This document shows, piece after piece, positions 67 to 12,038 of a DNA stretch of 16,771 bases. The stretch covers positions 1 to 16,771 of the IMG/VR virus record IMGVR_UViG_2698536372_000015; one strand, 5' to 3'. The translations under genes were made by a program, and so were the position numbers. The notes below the pieces were generated by a model that saw only the letters and a program-made list of their open reading frames with translations, searched no databases and was not told the origin of the DNA. The first letter of the stretch is position 1. Each line of letters starts with the position of its first letter. Source of the DNA: a virus. Lineage: Duplodnaviria > Heunggongvirae > Uroviricota > Caudoviricetes.

Positions 67-455
67 AGTCCCTCCTGAGCAGAAGCGTTAACAGGGAGGC
101 ACCAGTAACTGAGAGAATTGCGTGAATCAGTGGAAAAACGGGCAGAGAAAATACAGGGAGCATCCGGAAGCTGAGAACGTGCCTCATCTTCTGTCGGTGC
201 AATAACGAAGTGATAGTGGCGTTTCTGGCAGGAGTAAAAGCGCCAGATAAATTCAGGGCGTGCGCAAGGATTGGCATTAACCATAGTTACGGCCTCATTC
301 GTAGGTTTAACAACCTGCGACCCGCTGTCAAACAGGTGGCAGGACGTGACAGGGTTGACAGACTGGCACGAATGAAACCAGCAGGCCGAAGCCTCCCCAT
401 CACGCCCCACCATAATTCGGGCGTAACGCGGTTTACGGACACAAAAATACCGCAA
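63..455 (-). CDS. hypothetical protein; start uncertain (TTG at 455, or ATG at 284 with a GAGG SD)
   Basis: Open frame whose TGA stop overlaps the start of the next minus-strand gene (ATGA), and whose 3' end encodes that gene's SD. No recognisable motif; composition not strongly protein-like. Confidence 0.3.
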   Translation of the reverse strand: MRYFCVRKPRYARIMVGRDGEASACWFHSCQSVNPVTSCHLFDSGSQVVKPTNEAVTMVNANPCARPEFIWRFYSCQKRHYHFVIAPTEDEARSQLPDAPCIFSARFSTDSRNSLSYWCLPVNASAQEGL

Positions 456-585
456 TATCGGAAATCTGCGGTTGTCCGCATTCGTATTCAGGCTGTCAAA
501 CCTGGTCGCAGAATTTGCTACGACGGTGGAACTATAAGCCTGAACGACGATGAGATCAATAGAGCCGTGTTCGATGGTAGGTTAT

Positions 586-3078: not shown

Positions 3079-3275
3079 TAAAAACCCCGTCAGTTGGCGG
3101 GGAACTCCACGTTAAATGACCAATTATTATGTTAGCTAGCAGTTAAAGCGCCTAGTCATTATCTCTTAAAGAAGTCTTTTTAACTTATCTAAATTAGTGA
3201 CACCTCCCGTTTTGCTTGCTATGGTATGCATTCATAAACCTATTCATTAATCTATTCACAACAGTAATTAAAACT

Positions 3276-4580
3276 ATGGCTACACATGCAACAACAATCC
3301 GTAGCTTGCTCAATCAAGGGCCTATGACACCAAGACAATTGGTTGAAAAACTCAGTGTTAGCCAACCAACGATATCTAGAGCATTAAGAGAACTTGGTGA
3401 TGAAATCGTTAGGATCGGAAATGGAAGATCTATTCAATATGCTTTACGAGACTCTTTTAGAGGATTCGAATCAGTCCCCATTTATCGTATAACTGAAGAG
3501 GGGTGTATTTGCGTTCTTGGTACTCTCATTCCGGTGAGGCCAGAAGGCTATGTTATGGTTGAGGATGGGAAAAATAACAGGCATAGCGATGGGTTACCTT
3601 GGTGGTTATTTGATATGCGTCCACAAGGCTTCCTTGGAAGAGCATATGCATCAGCATATGCTCTTGAACTTAACCTTCCCTCAAATCCAGAGCAATGGTC
3701 AGATACTGATGTGATCAAAGCCTTACTTAAGCATGGGCATGATGTTGTTGGTAATTTGTTAATTGGAGAGCAAGCGCGCACGCATTTTTTAGAGATGCAG
3801 CCTCCTGTTCCTGTTAATCGTGAAATTGAATATCCTGTATTAGCTTTAGCCGCTGGTGAAGGTGATGTGCCAGGTTCATCTGCTGGAGGTGAACAACCCA
3901 AATTTTGTACTTTCACAGAGCGTGGACATGTATTAGTGAAATTCTCTGCGCCTAACGACACCCCTATAAGTGAGCGCTGGAGAGATCTCTTGTTTGCTGA
4001 ACATCTCGCATTAAAAGTTCTGGGGGTAGAAACAGAAGTTTTTGATTATAACGGTCAGAGATTCTTGGAAATTCCCCGATTTGATCGTGTTGGTCAACTC
4101 GGTCGGGTAGGTGTATTCTCACTTCGTGCACTTGATGCAGAATTTGTTGGTAATGCAAGAGCAACATGGCCCTTGCTGGTTAAAGAGTTGGTAAAAAATA
4201 AGTGCGTCCATCCTGATGCGATTATTATAGCAACAAGGCTATGGTCTTTTGGTGTGCTAATAGGCAATACCGATATGCATAATGGCAACCTATCGTTTAT
4301 TAGTAGCCACGGACGCCCATATCATATTGCTCCAGCCTATGACATGTTACCTATGGGTTTTGCCCCACGCTCTGGGGGAGCAATGTCTAATGAGCTTAGA
4401 AAAACAGCACTACCAGACTTTGTAAGTCGAAAAATATGGGATGAATCTCTTGAATTAGCTGAAAAATTTTATGCATTGGCCTGTGAGGCCGACAAATTCT
4501 CAGCTAACTTTACTCCATGTTTAGAAGCACTACGCATCCACCTAGATGATTGTAAAATACGCATAGCCCGCCTGGCATAA
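3276..4580 (+). CDS. HipA-like Ser/Thr kinase with N-terminal helix-turn-helix domain (YjjJ/HipH-like architecture)
   Basis: N-terminal HTH (MTPRQLVEKLSVSQPTISRALRELG). HipA-type motifs: P-loop-like SSAGGEQPKF, catalytic GNTDMHNGNLSF, Mg-binding APAYDMLPMGF. Visibly more AT-rich than flanking genes. Start taken at ATG 3276 (MATHATT...) rather than the ORF-track 3216. Confidence 0.85.
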   Translation: MATHATTIRSLLNQGPMTPRQLVEKLSVSQPTISRALRELGDEIVRIGNGRSIQYALRDSFRGFESVPIYRITEEGCICVLGTLIPVRPEGYVMVEDGKNNRHSDGLPWWLFDMRPQGFLGRAYASAYALELNLPSNPEQWSDTDVIKALLKHGHDVVGNLLIGEQARTHFLEMQPPVPVNREIEYPVLALAAGEGDVPGSSAGGEQPKFCTFTERGHVLVKFSAPNDTPISERWRDLLFAEHLALKVLGVETEVFDYNGQRFLEIPRFDRVGQLGRVGVFSLRALDAEFVGNARATWPLLVKELVKNKCVHPDAIIIATRLWSFGVLIGNTDMHNGNLSFISSHGRPYHIAPAYDMLPMGFAPRSGGAMSNELRKTALPDFVSRKIWDESLELAEKFYALACEADKFSANFTPCLEALRIHLDDCKIRIARLA

Positions 4581-4920: not shown

Positions 4921-7897
4921 TATTTAGCTCCTTTGCCACACCTAATAACAGTTCCAGCAATCCGTCACCATTCATCAGTGATGCGGCAGCGGCCTCTTTA
5001 TCATGATACAACTGAAGAGCCATAGAGAATACTTCCGTTGCTGACGTTTTGGAAATAGTCGGTGATTTCTGCCGAATTTTCCCGGTGTTACTTACTGAGG
5101 CTGGCGGGTATACCTTCGCCATATAAATATTACTCAATCGAGATCTGAAGCACCATTCAGGCTTGCCACGCCCACCGATATTGACGAAAGATGGCTTATC
5201 CCCTTCAACATTGGCCTTCAGGAATGACCGGGCTTTCTCTAACAAACCAGGGTTACTGTACTCAAGATGATGACCCAGCTCGTGCCACAGTGCGCTCGCA
5301 TTTTCATCGTTCAAATTGACAGCAACAACACCATTTAGATTTGCATATGCCCTTCCCTGGTGGTGAACTACCTTTGATAAGGTCGATATTTTCCCGCCGG
5401 TCAGGCGATAAATATCAGCAAGTTCCTTGCGCAGGTCTATCCCACCATTCTGTCCAGCGCGGGCTTCTTCCACTTCTTCTGTGATAAAAGAGTCGGCCCA
5501 CTCAAGAGCTTTTTCTTCAGATACGGATGAGTTTGCGATCGCACTGTTCATGGCAGATAACACTTTCTCGTGGACCGAACCCATACTTCGCTGATTCATT
5601 TGCCAGCGTGTCTGCGGGTTATATGAGAATCGCTTAAGTAGTTGGTCAAGCTGCTCAAGTTCTTCTTCACTGACATACTTTTTAGCCTCACCAATAATGC
5701 CAGGGAGAATATTGCCGTTAGGATTAAACGCTCGCGAAAGGAAGAGTTTCAGCGCCCCCATGCCCTCCGATGCTTCAATATCACCAATAACCCGGTTAAC
5801 AATGGCCGCACTCTTCGGATTAGCATCCGCCAACGCTCTGGCTACGATTTGCAGGGACGATACGACCTCACGCTGCATATCAGTCCTGATCTCATCAATA
5901 AACTCTGGCGTTATGCCGTGCTCTTTAAGGATATCCCGGCCTTCCGCCGTTACCCCATCGATATCACCGACATGTTTATTAACACGACTTTGCAATGCCT
6001 TAAATGCCTTCAGAATTCCACGGGCATCATCCGCTTTACTAACGGCCTTCCTGAATGCTGGCAAGAAGTCTGAGTTAACCTCATTTTGTTGATCGGCCCA
6101 CTGAATGGAGGCTTCCTTCATCTCGTCCAGAGTCAGATCACCCAACGCGGTATGGTCTGTGAATATGAGCGATAACCTCTGAACCATTTCTGCCAATGGT
6201 GATGCCGAATGCGCCGCGCTAAGGAATGCTTTCACCCTGGTTGGGCGAATGGAAAACCAGTCAATAGCTGGTGGCATATCTCCGTTTTTTATCGCCTGCG
6301 CTATCTCGTCAAAGCCATCGCGCCCAAGGGAGGATGCGTGATTTAACAAGCCGCGAAGTAACGAATTGCTGATACCGAATAATCGGCACCATTTTTTCAC
6401 GTCGGCAACAGGCATTCGAACAAAATGCGCAAGCACTTGAACAAGCTGTTCATCCTGGGGATCTGTACGGGAAAGCAGCCTGATCAGATGAATAATGTCT
6501 TTGATGCCGGATGCCCGATGTAATAGCAAGCTGGTATATGGAGCAACACCGTTGTAACTACCGCCAGAAGCTGACTCGAAAAGACCGCCAGATATCCCTT
6601 GCATACCTTCGTTTTCCAGTTCCTGAGATACCTGGCGAAGGATATCCTGTAACGACACATCGCCGCCGCCAAACATATCCCCGAGCGCCTGGCCCTGGTG
6701 CTGTAACTCATCATTGATACGTTGCGCCATCAACTTAAAGGCGGTGGCCATACGCTTCGCGCTACGGTTATTCGCGACGATGAACAACGCGAGTGCTTTC
6801 ACTTCCGGGGCCATTTCGCTGAACATATCCCCCTGAGCAATAACATCGGTAATATGCTGGCCTGACTCCTTCGATTGCCTTACCAGGTCTACCGCATCTT
6901 TCAATGCCGCCAGCGCCTTTTTATCGAGGCTATCCGCTGTCTCAATGCCATCAACAATAGTTGTCACAGCCTGCTTGTGCGCTTCTCCTGATAAAGCCTG
7001 CATCTGGACAAAATCATTGGCTGCCGCATTAAGCGCCGTCAGAACATTACGCATATCCGGATCAGGTTCTTCTGCAACCATCCTTACCAGGCGCGCATCC
7101 TTATATGCCTTGGCAAAGATCGCGTTTTGTATACGGTCTACAAGTTGCCGTGTTGGTCGCCCATCTTCAGTTACAAGGCCAGCCGCCTGTGTGGCACCAA
7201 CTTGCGTCATAAATCCGCGAATAAACGCGTCATTACTGCGGCTAAGCAGATCTCCGCTTTCTGACGGATTAAACAGCGCCATCATCGCCGGTGTTATGCT
7301 GTCGGCATCAACAAAAGCCTTTTCACTGGCTGCCATTTCCTGAAGATCAGAAATATTTGAGTCCTTGGCAAACTGAACGCGGTCAACCTTCGTTAACCGG
7401 CGGCGCACCAGTACCGGAGCCGTCATTGATTCAACCTTTTCAGTACGTATGCCGAATTCGGTCGCATGTTCAATCAGGTACTCCCGATACCGATCCGCAT
7501 TACCGTCCTGATAGGCTTTAATGATCCCCATGGTACGTCCATTACCTGACTCAACTGCATTGTCCTCACCAATTATCGGTGCGCCATGGCTGGATAATCC
7601 GGAATCGGTAAGCTGAGCAGGCCGCAAATCTTTGGATATCTGGTTAACCTGAAGAAGGCTGGATGCGCGGGTCCGGTCGCGCGGCTGAAGTTCCTGGGGA
7701 TAGTCAGGATTAATTTTCCCATCCAGAGTATTGGATACCAAAATAGCTGAGGCATCGACGATATCAAACGCTGTTTTTACCTCGTCTCCCTTCGCTGTCA
7801 CCACATACGAAACCCGCCCATAATCGGGCAGGTTCTTTAGCAGCTCGATCAGCGTTTCTATGCTGGTGGCCATTACCACCTGATCGCTTAAGCTCAT
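4910..7897 (-). CDS. large (995 aa) phage protein with an HExxH zinc-metallopeptidase-like motif; possibly an internal virion or antirestriction-type protein (position suggests P1 DdrB, unverified)
   Basis: Uninterrupted 2988-nt frame with protein-like composition. HELGHH encoded at 5284..5267 near the C-terminus. No other motif recognised; the DdrB assignment is from recalled P1 gene order only. Confidence 0.85.
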   Translation of the reverse strand: MSLSDQVVMATSIETLIELLKNLPDYGRVSYVVTAKGDEVKTAFDIVDASAILVSNTLDGKINPDYPQELQPRDRTRASSLLQVNQISKDLRPAQLTDSGLSSHGAPIIGEDNAVESGNGRTMGIIKAYQDGNADRYREYLIEHATEFGIRTEKVESMTAPVLVRRRLTKVDRVQFAKDSNISDLQEMAASEKAFVDADSITPAMMALFNPSESGDLLSRSNDAFIRGFMTQVGATQAAGLVTEDGRPTRQLVDRIQNAIFAKAYKDARLVRMVAEEPDPDMRNVLTALNAAANDFVQMQALSGEAHKQAVTTIVDGIETADSLDKKALAALKDAVDLVRQSKESGQHITDVIAQGDMFSEMAPEVKALALFIVANNRSAKRMATAFKLMAQRINDELQHQGQALGDMFGGGDVSLQDILRQVSQELENEGMQGISGGLFESASGGSYNGVAPYTSLLLHRASGIKDIIHLIRLLSRTDPQDEQLVQVLAHFVRMPVADVKKWCRLFGISNSLLRGLLNHASSLGRDGFDEIAQAIKNGDMPPAIDWFSIRPTRVKAFLSAAHSASPLAEMVQRLSLIFTDHTALGDLTLDEMKEASIQWADQQNEVNSDFLPAFRKAVSKADDARGILKAFKALQSRVNKHVGDIDGVTAEGRDILKEHGITPEFIDEIRTDMQREVVSSLQIVARALADANPKSAAIVNRVIGDIEASEGMGALKLFLSRAFNPNGNILPGIIGEAKKYVSEEELEQLDQLLKRFSYNPQTRWQMNQRSMGSVHEKVLSAMNSAIANSSVSEEKALEWADSFITEEVEEARAGQNGGIDLRKELADIYRLTGGKISTLSKVVHHQGRAYANLNGVVAVNLNDENASALWHELGHHLEYSNPGLLEKARSFLKANVEGDKPSFVNIGGRGKPEWCFRSRLSNIYMAKVYPPASVSNTGKIRQKSPTISKTSATEVFSMALQLYHDKEAAAASLMNGDGLLELLLGVAKELNNAD

Positions 7898-7996
7898 CCC
7901 TGTTACGCCTTATCCAATGTGCCGCCCCCTACGCTCCTCATAGTGGGGATATAAGGCACAGTTTTCCTCCCGGCTATTTTTGCTTAAAATAGTGAC

Positions 7997-9943
7997 ATGA
8001 AACAACAGGTGTCATTCAAATTCCGGTTAAAACCAGATGGTCAACAGGAGCGTCAAATGAGGCGCTTTGCCGGAGCTTGTCGTTTCGTTTTCAACCGTGC
8101 TCTGGCGCTTCAGAATGAGAATCATGAGGCCGGTAAAAAATACATCCCTTACACGAAAATGGCTTCCTGGTTGGTTGAGTGGAAAAAAGACACTGAAACC
8201 GAATGGCTTAAAGATTCTCCCTCACAGCCATTGCAACAGTCACTGAAAGACCTTGAGCGGGCTTACAAAAACTTCTTCCAGAATCGGGCAGCTTTTCCCC
8301 GATTCAAAAAGCGGGGACAGAATGATGCATTCCGCTACCCGCAGGGTGTTAAGCTCGATCAGGAGAACAGCCGTATTTTTCTGCCGAAACTGGGCTGGAT
8401 GCGCTACCGGAATAGCCGTCAGGTCACGGGTGTTGTGAAAAATGTCACTGTCAGCCAGTCCTGCGGTAAGTGGTACATCAGTATTCAGACAGAAAGAGAG
8501 GTATCCACTCCTGTTCACCCTTCTGCATCAATGGTCGGACTGGATGCTGGTGTGGCTAAACTCGCCACGCTGTCAGATGGCACAGTCTTTGAACCTGTAA
8601 ATAGTTTTCAGAAAAACCAGAAGAAGCTGGCGAGACTTCAGCGACAGTTAAGCCGCAAGGTCAAATTCAGCAACAACTGGCAGAAGCAGAAACGCAAAAT
8701 ACAGCGACTGCATTCCCGTATCGCAAATATCCGCAGGGACTACCTTCATAAAGTCACAACGACCGTCAGCAAAAACCACGCAATGATAGTCATTGAGGAT
8801 TTGAAGGTCAGCAACATGTCAAAGTCAGCAGCGGGTACGGTCAGCCAGCCGGGGCGCAATGTCCGGGCAAAATCAGGTTTAAACCGTTCGATACTGGATC
8901 AGGGCTGGTATGAAATGCGCCGCCAGCTTGAGTACAAGCAGCTCTGGCGTGGCGGTCAGGTGCTTGCTGTTCCGCCAGCGTACACAAGCCAGCGTTGCGC
9001 GTGCTGTGGTCATACAGCGAANNNNNNNGCTTTTCCCCGATTCAAAAAGCGGGGACAGAATGATGCATTCCGCTACCCGCAGGGTGTTAAGCTCGATCAG
9101 GAGAACAGCCGTATTTTTCTGCCGAAACTGGGCTGGATGCGCTACCGGAATAGCCGTCAGGTCACGGGTGTTGTGAAAAATGTCACTGTCAGCCAGTCCT
9201 GCGGTAAGTGGTACATCAGTATTCAGACAGAAAGAGAGGTATCCACTCCTGTTCACCCTTCTGCATCAATGGTCGGACTGGATGCTGGTGTGGCTAAACT
9301 CGCCACGCTGTCAGATGGCACAGTCTTTGAACCTGTAAATAGTTTTCAGAAAAACCAGAAGAAGCTGGCGAGACTTCAGCGACAGTTAAGCCGCAAGGTC
9401 AAATTCAGCAACAACTGGCAGAAGCAGAAACGCAAAATACAGCGACTGCATTTTCGTATCGCAAATATCCGCAGAGACTACCTTCATAAAGTCACAACGA
9501 TCATCAGCAAAAACCACGCAATGATTGTCATTGAGGATTTGAAGGTTAAAAACATGGCAAAGTCAGCAGCGGGTACGGTCAGCCAGCCGGGGCGCAATGT
9601 CTGGACAAAATCAGGTTTAAACCGTTCGATACTGGATCAGGGCTGGTATGAAATGCGCCGCCAGCTTGAGTATAAGCAGCTCTGGCATGGCGGTCAGGTA
9701 CTGGCAGTGCCGCCAGCGTACACAAGCCAGCGTTGCGCGTGCTGTGGTCATACCGCGAAAGAAAATCGCCTGTCACAAAGTAAATTCAGATGCCAGGTAT
9801 GTGGATATACAGCGAACGCCGATGTAAACGGCGCTCGTAACATTTTAGCGGCGGGGCACGCCGTTCTTGCCTGTGGAGGGATGGTGCAGTCAGGCCGCCC
9901 GTTGAAGCAGGAACCAACCGAAATGATTCAGGCGATAGCCTGA
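7997..9943 (+). CDS. tnpB: IS605-family TnpB (OrfB) RNA-guided nuclease; assembled ORF artefactually lengthened by an in-frame 738-nt duplication across a 7-N gap (true length about 402 aa)
   Basis: RuvC-I GLDAG, RuvC-II VIEDL, zinc finger CACCGH...CQVCGY, Ruv[14 protein letters not shown]. Blocks 8291-9021 and 9029-9759 are near-identical and separated by NNNNNNN; the offset is 738 nt, so the frame is kept and the translation shows XXX. Confidence 0.85.
8291..9021. repeat. first copy of duplicated 731-bp tnpB segment, ending at the assembly gap
   Basis: Identical to 9029-9452 over the first 424 bp, then roughly 15-20 substitutions by eye up to the gap. Confidence 0.8.
9029..9759. repeat. 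second copy of duplicated tnpB segment, contiguous with the tnpB 3' end
   Basis: Begins immediately after the N run at 9022-9028 and continues into the C-terminal zinc-finger region. Confidence 0.8.
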
Positions 9944-10004
9944 ACGTAGCAGGAATCCACGCCCGTCAGGGTGCGGAGGATGTCAAAAGGCAGGTGAGGT
10001 TATA

Positions 10005-10136
10005 ATGAGAAAACTATTACTACCGTTATTATTTATGGCCGGGACTGTTAATGCAGCATCAAGCGTGAAGGAGATTTGTACCGATTATACGAAATACCTT
10101 GGGCACGTTTACGCCTTTGCGATCAATGACTATTAA
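10005..10136 (+). CDS. small exported peptide (43 aa, predicted signal peptide)
   Basis: ATG with a good SD (GGTGAGG); N-terminal signal-peptide-like MRKLLLPLLFMAGTVNA; mature part about 26 aa with one Cys. Below the ORF-track length cut-off; found by reading. Confidence 0.4.
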   Translation: MRKLLLPLLFMAGTVNAASSVKEICTDYTKYLGHVYAFAINDY

Positions 10137-10157
10137 TCCATGCGTAGGAGTGGATTT

Positions 10158-10475
10158 ATGCTGATTCGTTTGTTTTTAGTGCTTTCCTTTTTAACATTTA
10201 ATGTTTTTGCTGATGAAGTTGACTTTTCGAAGGTAGATTGCAATTCAGTGGAAACAAGAAAAGCTCTTATTGAAGAATATAACGAAATATTATCGTCATA
10301 TGGAATAACAGTGGTTGATTCTTATAATCAAAAAACTATTCAGAAAGGAATAAATAAACTGGTTTGTTATGGGGTTTACCAATATTCAGATGGCTCTTCG
10401 GAGTATGTTATTTATAAAGCATACCCAAATAGTCTTGGTGAATTGATTAGTGAGTTTAAACCGATTAATGAGTGA
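10158..10475 (+). CDS. small exported protein (105 aa, cleavable signal peptide, two Cys)
   Basis: ATG at 10158 with SD AGGAG. Signal peptide MLIRLFLVLSFLTFNVFA followed by an acidic mature start. Very AT-rich coding sequence. Confidence 0.6.
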   Translation: MLIRLFLVLSFLTFNVFADEVDFSKVDCNSVETRKALIEEYNEILSSYGITVVDSYNQKTIQKGINKLVCYGVYQYSDGSSEYVIYKAYPNSLGELISEFKPINE

Positions 10476-10482
10476 ATGGAAA

Positions 10483-11262
10483 ATGAAATTATTTAATGTA
10501 ATAACATTTTGTTGTGCTATTTTTGCTGGAAGCGCGATAGCTGATAATAAATTGCCAGATTGGCTTTCTACTTCAAAAAAAGATTATGATTTAGTAAGGG
10601 TGTTCTATTTGTCTGGATTTGCCTCGAAAGCAATGAATAATCAATTTGGTTATCATTTTCCATCTGAGTTGGTTAATGATTTTAAAGATAATGAATTTGC
10701 CGCTCAGGAAAAATGGAATAAAATTTCAATTGTATATGGTGAAATAAAATCCATAAGAATGGTGAATAATGAACCAATTGTAGAGTTATTTACTCCAGGG
10801 GAAAATGCAACGCCACTAAATTATATCAAATTGAAAGTGTTGGATTCAAAACAAAACTCTCTGTTAAAACTAAAAAAAGGGGATGATATATATGCAGTGT
10901 GCTCCGGTGCTAATTTTAGTTTAGTGCCAATTCTGAGCAACTGCACTCCAGCAACTGACGTCATTGATGCTGCACTCTCTTTTTCTGGTGAATATATGTT
11001 CCCTGCTTTTGATTCTTTTTCACCTACTAAGCAAAACGTCAAATATATATTCACAAATCAAGATCCTGTTCAGATGATGAATTTTATAGGGTACCTATCC
11101 TTAGTCGATACAACGAAGGATAAGAATAAAATGGATATGGTTCGTAAGTGTACGCCTTGGAAGCCGGAATGTTCACAACAATTCGTTGATGTAATGGAAG
11201 GATTTGATAACATCATGTATAAATATGAGAGGGAATTTAAAAATTACATAGAATTAAAATAG
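10483..11262 (+). CDS. exported protein (259 aa, signal peptide, several Cys), unknown function
   Basis: ATG at 10483 is 8 nt after the upstream stop. Signal peptide MKLFNVITFCCAIFAGSAIA with a likely signal peptidase I site (no clear lipobox). Very AT-rich. Confidence 0.65.
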   Translation: MKLFNVITFCCAIFAGSAIADNKLPDWLSTSKKDYDLVRVFYLSGFASKAMNNQFGYHFPSELVNDFKDNEFAAQEKWNKISIVYGEIKSIRMVNNEPIVELFTPGENATPLNYIKLKVLDSKQNSLLKLKKGDDIYAVCSGANFSLVPILSNCTPATDVIDAALSFSGEYMFPAFDSFSPTKQNVKYIFTNQDPVQMMNFIGYLSLVDTTKDKNKMDMVRKCTPWKPECSQQFVDVMEGFDNIMYKYEREFKNYIELK

Positions 11263-11294
11263 TATTTGAAATGATAGTCAATTTAAGTTTTAAC

Positions 11295-11326
11295 AAAACG
11301 CCCATTAAAGGGCGTTTTATTGTTTT
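11295..11326 (+). terminator. rho-independent terminator of the exported-protein operon
   Basis: Stem AAAACGCCC / GGGCGTTTT with loop ATTAAA, followed by a T-rich run (ATTGTTTT). Confidence 0.7.
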
Positions 11327-11430
11327 ACTCAAAACAATCTGATTATGTGATAACCATATCATATTCCTCATTCCACCTACACTGATTACCCCCCAGACAA
11401 CAACATTCCTACTCAATGAACAAATGACTA

Positions 11431-12038
<608 letters not shown>

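Follow-up and report, generated by a model that had tools for sequence, protein, structure and literature searches.

The three small genes at positions 10005 to 11326 of the DNA analysed here, a 16,771-nucleotide stretch of a tailed-phage record (hereafter the window), are best explained as the simA'-simB-simC superimmunity operon of a P1-like phage-plasmid, and we give this reading a probability of roughly 0.9. The sim system was named and functionally assigned about forty years ago, and as a discovery the locus carries little weight. Its remaining value lies in the assignment of an OB fold to SimC, in the truncated state of simA, in the cassette-like behaviour of simB-simC and in the insertion of an IS element at the sim leader.

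Identity and layout of the operon

Window positions 9987–11450 align with positions 46598–48061 of phage P1 at 97.7% nucleotide identity over 1464 nt, a part of the P1 record that is labelled as simA, simB and simC. The sim stretch is also 96.7% identical to GenBank M34382 (‘P1 sim region’, 1990), and the operon DNA reaches 99.9% identity with P1-like plasmids of E. coli. At the protein level, identity to P1 is 100% for SimB and 96.5% for SimC, the latter value holding for M34382 ORF2 as well; the P1 annotation of simC reads ‘superimmunity’. The likeness to P1 simA-simB-simC (M34382; NC_005856 46786–48070) extends to the genes, their order, the terminator and the neighbours pmgC-tub-pmgB-sit, whose P1 order is kept to the end of the window. 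The downstream half of the P1 slot (LPsit-pmgC-tub-pmgB-sit) is matched in this way; the upstream half is interrupted by the IS element and holds a scaffold gap at 9022–9028. In P1 the upstream side is occupied by the divergent c4-icd-ant immunity operon (immI), with nothing but PsimA and the Oc4 operator between it and sim, whereas the window has a TnpB element inserted after a TTAT, 18 nt before the simA ATG. The open reading frames are real, far beyond chance: phage P1 has the operon, as do 127 complete E. coli genomes. The original prediction had recognised no family in these proteins, and they belong to the P1 sim family, annotated both in the P1 genome and in M34382. Their identity is hidden from annotation because RefSeq entries label the sim genes on plasmids ‘hypothetical protein’.

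All features of the operon lie on the plus strand. The simA 5' leader (9987–10004) carries a ribosome-binding site, GGTGAGG, at 9993–9999, as placed by alignment to P1 and to pAUSMDU00014361_02. It is followed by simA' (10005–10136; 43 aa), composed of a predicted signal peptide (residues 1–17, cleavage at VNA/A) and 26 further residues; by simB (10158–10475; 105 aa), with a signal peptide at residues 1–18 (VFA/D) and an 87-residue acidic mature part containing two Cys; and by simC (10483–11262; 259 aa), encoding the Sim exclusion protein with a signal peptide at residues 1–20 (AIA/D). An alternative in-frame ATG at 10140 would extend SimB to 111 aa; the AGGAG at 10146–10150 suits the start at 10158. 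The P1 annotation begins simC 15 nt earlier than position 10483. Intergenic gaps are small, with 21 nt (or 3 nt) between simA and simB and 7 nt between simB and simC. Hairpin scanning and folding place a rho-independent terminator at 11295–11326, where a 9-bp stem with five G-C pairs (11295–11318) precedes ATTGTTTT; its fold of −16.5 kcal/mol gives z = −3.6 against shuffles.

All three N-termini show a basic n-region, then a hydrophobic core whose best 9-residue Kyte-Doolittle means are 2.66–2.77, and a −3/−1 cleavage motif. No lipobox, a feature that had been proposed as a check, is present in SimA, SimB or SimC; Cys10-Cys11 of SimC fall within the hydrophobic core and have no L-x-[AG]-C context. 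Nor do the mature parts contain a transmembrane segment, as the top three 19-residue hydropathy windows start at residues 1–3 in SimB and SimC and at residues 1–4 in SimA. Mature SimC comprises 239 aa (27.5 kDa, pI 5.4). The even numbers of Cys residues in the mature proteins (SimB two, SimC four) fit periplasmic disulfides in both.

The original prediction thus stands in its description of the locus: three plus-strand open reading frames of 43, 105 and 259 aa, each with a signal peptide, closely spaced, ended by a rho-independent terminator and adjacent to a TnpB element. Its claim of an AT-rich three-gene unit needs amending. GC content is indeed 0.328 across 10005–11326 and 0.480 in the rest of the window, but the low-GC part is really simB-simC (0.31 and 0.33), with simA at 0.39. 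Across the loci compared, simA ranges from 0.39 to 0.45, and simB and simC from 0.31 to 0.34. We agree with the earlier view that this composition points to an apparently foreign origin.

Evidence for a truncated simA

Profile and sequence comparisons indicate that simA of P1 and of the window consists of the first 43 codons of a gene for an exported ‘SimA domain’ protein of 160–246 aa. PHROG 3933 matches SimA over only positions 1–41 of its 213-position profile. In a diverged P1-like element (L010; GCA_005690115.1), SimA has 179 residues (L010 5059–5598), of which the first 42 are 69% identical to window SimA. A search with this 179-residue protein returned 27 clusters (101–246 aa) from Salmonella, Klebsiella and E. 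coli, and ‘SimA domain protein’ is the name given to some of them. The N-terminus of one E. coli cluster with 906 members matches window SimA over aligned residues 1–37 and departs from it at residue 38. Thus, the three-gene operon predicted earlier does hold three open reading frames, of which the first is only a 43-aa stump of a longer gene, and what P1 annotates as an ‘accessory function’ gene, simA, is probably a remnant. Full-length SimA proteins are widespread in P1-like plasmids of Salmonella, Klebsiella and E. coli.

We considered full-length SimA as a homologue of T4 Spackle (PF25676), and hence as an inhibitor of the Sit transglycosylase, and rejected the match as chance: among 16 family members, only the SimA of L010 matches the Spackle profile, at E 0.048 and with 14.7 bits relative to a cut-off of 27. 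Sequence and profile searches of the PDB found no Spackle chain. Matches to protein A and GhpA are summed repeat noise.

The simB-simC cassette and its slot

The neighbouring segment pmgC-tub occurs in 509 of 5426 complete E. coli genomes and nearly always on a plasmid. P1-type phage-plasmids are frequent in clinical E. coli, being present in about 9% of complete genomes, and roughly one in four of them has sim: simC is found in 128 of the 509 carriers, and about three quarters of the P1-like elements of E. coli are without it. The operon is carried as a whole: in 127 records at least 80% of the operon query is covered, and in 126 at least 80% of simC.

On the sequence comparisons, simB and simC behave as a mobile low-GC two-gene cassette, which is the true AT-rich unit because simA is truncated, has a higher GC content and takes a different place in the gene order of a further element, L007. 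There, simB-simC and the terminator lie upstream of a complete simA (L007 1921–2568) with its own PsimA-like leader. The two genes are also side by side in L010, where they occupy the slot between icd/ant and pmgC. SimB and SimC of L010 are 61% and 40% identical to those of the window, and the two genes have a GC content of 0.32–0.34 against 0.47 in the flanks, low as in the window; SimA is full length there, whereas the window retains only its first 42 residues. No match to the L010-type sim allele was found in the plasmid collection.

Published work on P1-like phage-plasmids lists simABC as one of eight low-GC variable regions (PMC9603915). In P7 and SJ46 the slot, bounded by the C1 operator of c4 and by the late promoter LPsit, also encodes a pair of signal-peptide proteins, upf50.5 and upf50.0, but this pair is unrelated to Sim: one, a lipoprotein of the outer membrane, resembles TraT weakly (E 7e-5, below the cut-off), and the other is a DUF5384 protein. 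Since P7 and SJ46 have a different pair of exported proteins there, the slot is a swap site for envelope-acting cassettes, and the sim locus offers a clean example of such a slot in P1-type phage-plasmids. The P7 cassette lies at 2408–3472 of L004 (SJ46 is L005), and RefSeq mislabels its lipoprotein ‘DNA methyltransferase’.

In phage D6, orf79 (L008 3848–4744) encodes 298 aa, and its N-terminal domain, following the signal sequence, is 52% identical to SimB. We rejected this protein as a SimB-SimC fusion; its 160-residue C-terminal part is without similarity to SimC, so SimB-like domains also occur without SimC.

Fold and relatives of SimC

SimC is a near-orphan. A word-indexed search of 5.8 billion proteins returned four clusters, and an exhaustive HMMER search of 1.84 billion representative proteins gave 14 matches, among which the SimC of L010 (P0005; 40% identity) is the only full-length diverged relative. 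Residues about 48–160 (10624–10962) match Pfam PF12869, the tRNA_anti-like OB fold, with 23.2 bits and E 5.5e-5, 0.3 bits short of the cut-off of 23.5; the SimC relative P0014 scores 25.9 bits, above the cut-off, and both P0014 and another relative, P0015, have precomputed PF12869 matches. An AF2 model of SimC, moderately confident (mean pLDDT 65, from 8 sequences), contains a five-stranded OB barrel that can be superposed on a solved PF12869 structure. Together, profile and model make a PF12869-type OB fold recognisable in the N-terminal half of the protein. Moreover, Cys140 and Cys154 of this domain align with Cys residues in OB-only relatives. The remaining residues 161–259 (10963–11259), with Cys223 and Cys230, form a helical C-terminal domain according to the AF2 secondary structure and the alignment; the same protein searches detected no relatives of it outside the SimC family.

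A SimC-family profile run against PDB sequences gave nothing meaningful (best E 0.19). The solved protein closest in kind, PDB 3f1z, a putative nucleic-acid-binding lipoprotein of K. pneumoniae in PF12869, is 18% identical to SimC and differs from it in being a one-domain lipoprotein, whereas SimC has no lipobox and an extra helical domain of 100 residues. Binding of DNA in transit by the OB fold is disfavoured because mature SimC is acidic (pI 5.4, and 5.8 for the OB domain), which argues against simple DNA binding.

The distant relative P0015 is a 144-aa OB-fold protein encoded on metagenome contigs (L011 560–994, L012 and L013). The gene is flanked by a Pam3_gp18-like gene on one side and Bro-N/antirepressor genes on the other, in what seems to be a phage contig, a hint that phages may repeatedly carry exported OB-fold proteins of the P0015 type as morons.

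The TnpB element upstream of sim

Immediately outside sim lie the 3' part and right end of an IS200/IS605-family (IS609-type) TnpB/InsQ element (9029–9986, plus strand), which ends with ...GATGTCAA at 9986; the element is annotated as IS609 in phage 813R1. Homology to P1 begins at 9987. P1 reads GAGTTAT-AAGGCAGGTGAGGTTAT-AATGAG at this site, and the window resumes at AAGGCAGG. By comparison with the IS-free site, TTAT-AAGGCAGGTGAGGTTATAAT, the element has simply inserted behind the first TTAT; both the ddrB-side copy and the copy in pCREC439-2 likewise abut TTAT with their left ends. Four complete plasmids have the order c4/icd-TnpB-sim, likely the true arrangement. In these four the right end abuts AATGAG, and the ribosome-binding site of simA is lost. 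The two differing junctions, in the window and in pCREC439-2, suggest repeated insertions at the sim leader. The junction regions lie at 9944–10004 and about 7900–7950 of the window, and at 5840–5860 and 7180–7200 of L003.

TnpB elements produce a right-end (omega) RNA whose guide is copied from the flank. By analogy, the guide of this element could be copied from the simA leader (TTAT followed by AAGGCAGGTGAGGTTA...) and would match the IS-free sim loci of other P1-type genomes beside a TTAT motif, with a possible homing or anti-rival effect.

The gene order further upstream is not to be trusted, since two contigs ending in different copies of one and the same IS were joined. An apparent 648-aa ‘TnpB’ open reading frame (7997–9943) spans seven N at 9022–9028, and the N run is flanked by 731-bp segments (8291–9021 and 9029–9759) that are 97.4% identical; judged from this repeat, the reading frame is a scaffolding artefact. 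The adjacency ddrB-TnpB-simA is therefore probably not a real rearrangement.

Exclusion by SimC: proposed mechanism and alternatives

The sim operon was reportedly first described in 1982. Devlin et al. in 1982 and Kliem & Dreiseikelmann in 1989 are said to have observed exclusion with sim on multicopy plasmids, and the early work is said to have found processing of Sim to be SecA-dependent. As the phenotype was reported for multicopy clones, the strength of exclusion by a single-copy prophage is uncertain. More recent papers attribute superinfection exclusion in P1 to the sim gene (PMC9177967), call simC ‘the superinfection exclusion gene’ (PMC2409434) and hold that Sim is thought to prevent superinfecting phage DNA from reaching the cytoplasm (PMC8546580). 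Superinfection exclusion, one of the functions guessed at in the original prediction, is thus the documented function of the locus in the literature. CRISPRi found simA, simB and simC dispensable for lytic growth (PMC10695390). Processing of the SimC precursor is the subject of the title of Maillou & Dreiseikelmann 1990, as cited in PMC2409434; the AIA/D motif after residue 20, without a lipobox, is compatible with it.

In the mechanism that we propose, SimC would be synthesised as a precursor of 29.6 kDa that passes through Sec and loses its signal peptide after Ala20, leaving a soluble 27.5-kDa periplasmic protein, probably disulfide-bonded. It would halt superinfecting P1-type phage after adsorption and before entry of the DNA into the cytoplasm, the step taken from the literature. 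The OB-fold domain may serve as the binding module for a component of the injection apparatus that crosses the periplasm, with the tail-tube tip or the Sit tape-measure/transglycosylase as candidates, such that DNA transfer is jammed. SimB, always found alongside simC, most likely acts as an accessory partner or as a stabiliser, and the 26 residues left over in SimA' are probably inert. The sim papers cited here name no molecular target of SimC; the OB fold offers a concrete starting point for binding and escape-mutant work.

Envelope proteins that block later phage at or just after adsorption include T4 Sp (Spackle) and Imm, P22 SieA, HK97 gp15, TP-J34 Ltp and T5 Llp. SimC resembles them in outline only, in the block before DNA reaches the cytoplasm; we found no sequence or fold relation of the sim proteins to any of them. 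Unlike the lipoproteins Llp, Cor and Ltp, SimC has no lipobox; unlike T4 Imm, P22 SieA and HK97 gp15, mature SimC has no membrane-spanning segment.

Three other explanations have to be set against this one. The original prediction took the genes for an undescribed envelope-acting system, such as an endolysin inhibitor, an immunity protein or a virulence moron, and what speaks for it is the RefSeq label ‘hypothetical protein’ together with the lack of matches in annotation libraries: none of the three proteins matched a PADLOC-DB model at E up to 0.1, and the NCBIfam search was likewise without a usable match. The nucleotide identity to the named and published P1 simABC refutes this view, to which we give next to no credence. 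A second explanation accepts the operon as sim and regards the window copy as a silenced relic, severed from its promoters by the IS element, with simA truncated and the persistence of the genes owed only to a recent event. The element indeed lies between the annotated PsimA promoter and sim and takes the place of the −35 box of the annotated PsimB, so expression of this copy is uncertain. A promoter scan of 9700–11600 found 7 sites, with 6.3 ± 2.5 expected and nothing above background, and the similar insertion in pCREC439-2 has removed even the simA ribosome-binding site. Nevertheless, simB and simC are intact, with 99.9–100% identity to IS-free plasmid copies, and so are their ribosome-binding sites. 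Moreover, tnpB is co-directional and we found no terminator-like site on the plus strand between its stop codon and simA, which makes read-through plausible. On balance a relic seems unlikely, and expression of the window copy, if any, would come from tnpB read-through or from weak internal promoters.

The third explanation keeps the operon and changes the target: SimC would act on a component of the host envelope, an inner-membrane or periplasmic factor, that is needed for translocation of P1 DNA. Ordinary bacterial lipoproteins, that of K. pneumoniae (3f1z) for example, also contain OB folds of the SimC subfamily, so that the fold is not specific to phages, and other exclusion proteins work through host components, HK97 gp15 and DicB being examples cited in PMC6832061. 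Against such a target, the tail-tube and sit genes directly follow the sim slot, whose alleles differ by phage lineage; this pattern is expected if the target co-varies with the phage. No host factor beyond LPS is known to take part in P1 DNA entry. A host target is the main alternative, although we hold it less likely than the injection apparatus.

If the phage-directed mechanism is extended further, SimC might be the first exclusion protein to seize contractile-tail injection machinery through a periplasmic PF12869 OB fold, SimB-SimC a portable specificity module, and the TnpB guide a means of cutting rival IS-free sim loci. We regard this combination as quite improbable; were it true, exchange of SimB-SimC would change exclusion specificity, and TnpB would add a second exclusion at the same site, at the level of nucleic acids.

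Other features of the window

Near the start of the window, Rfam models identify a C4 antisense RNA at 332–417 (minus strand, 69.8 bits) and its a1/b1 targets at 485–537 (minus strand, 57.1 bits). These c4-like sequences are only 89% identical to P1 c4 and adjoin the lysozyme gene, not sim; a palindromic C1-operator-like sequence lies near 585–620, and open reading frames are found to the left of the RNA. The module beside lyz (c4-like, icd-like and antirepressor) is common to sixteen complete E. coli plasmids, and a plasmid with this module plus the usual c4-icd-ant would hold two such modules. Between ssb and ddrB, where P1 has IS1 and hxr, the window has a 454-aa open reading frame (3216–4580, plus strand) with an HTH-like start and a C-terminal part that looks HipA-kinase-like by eye.
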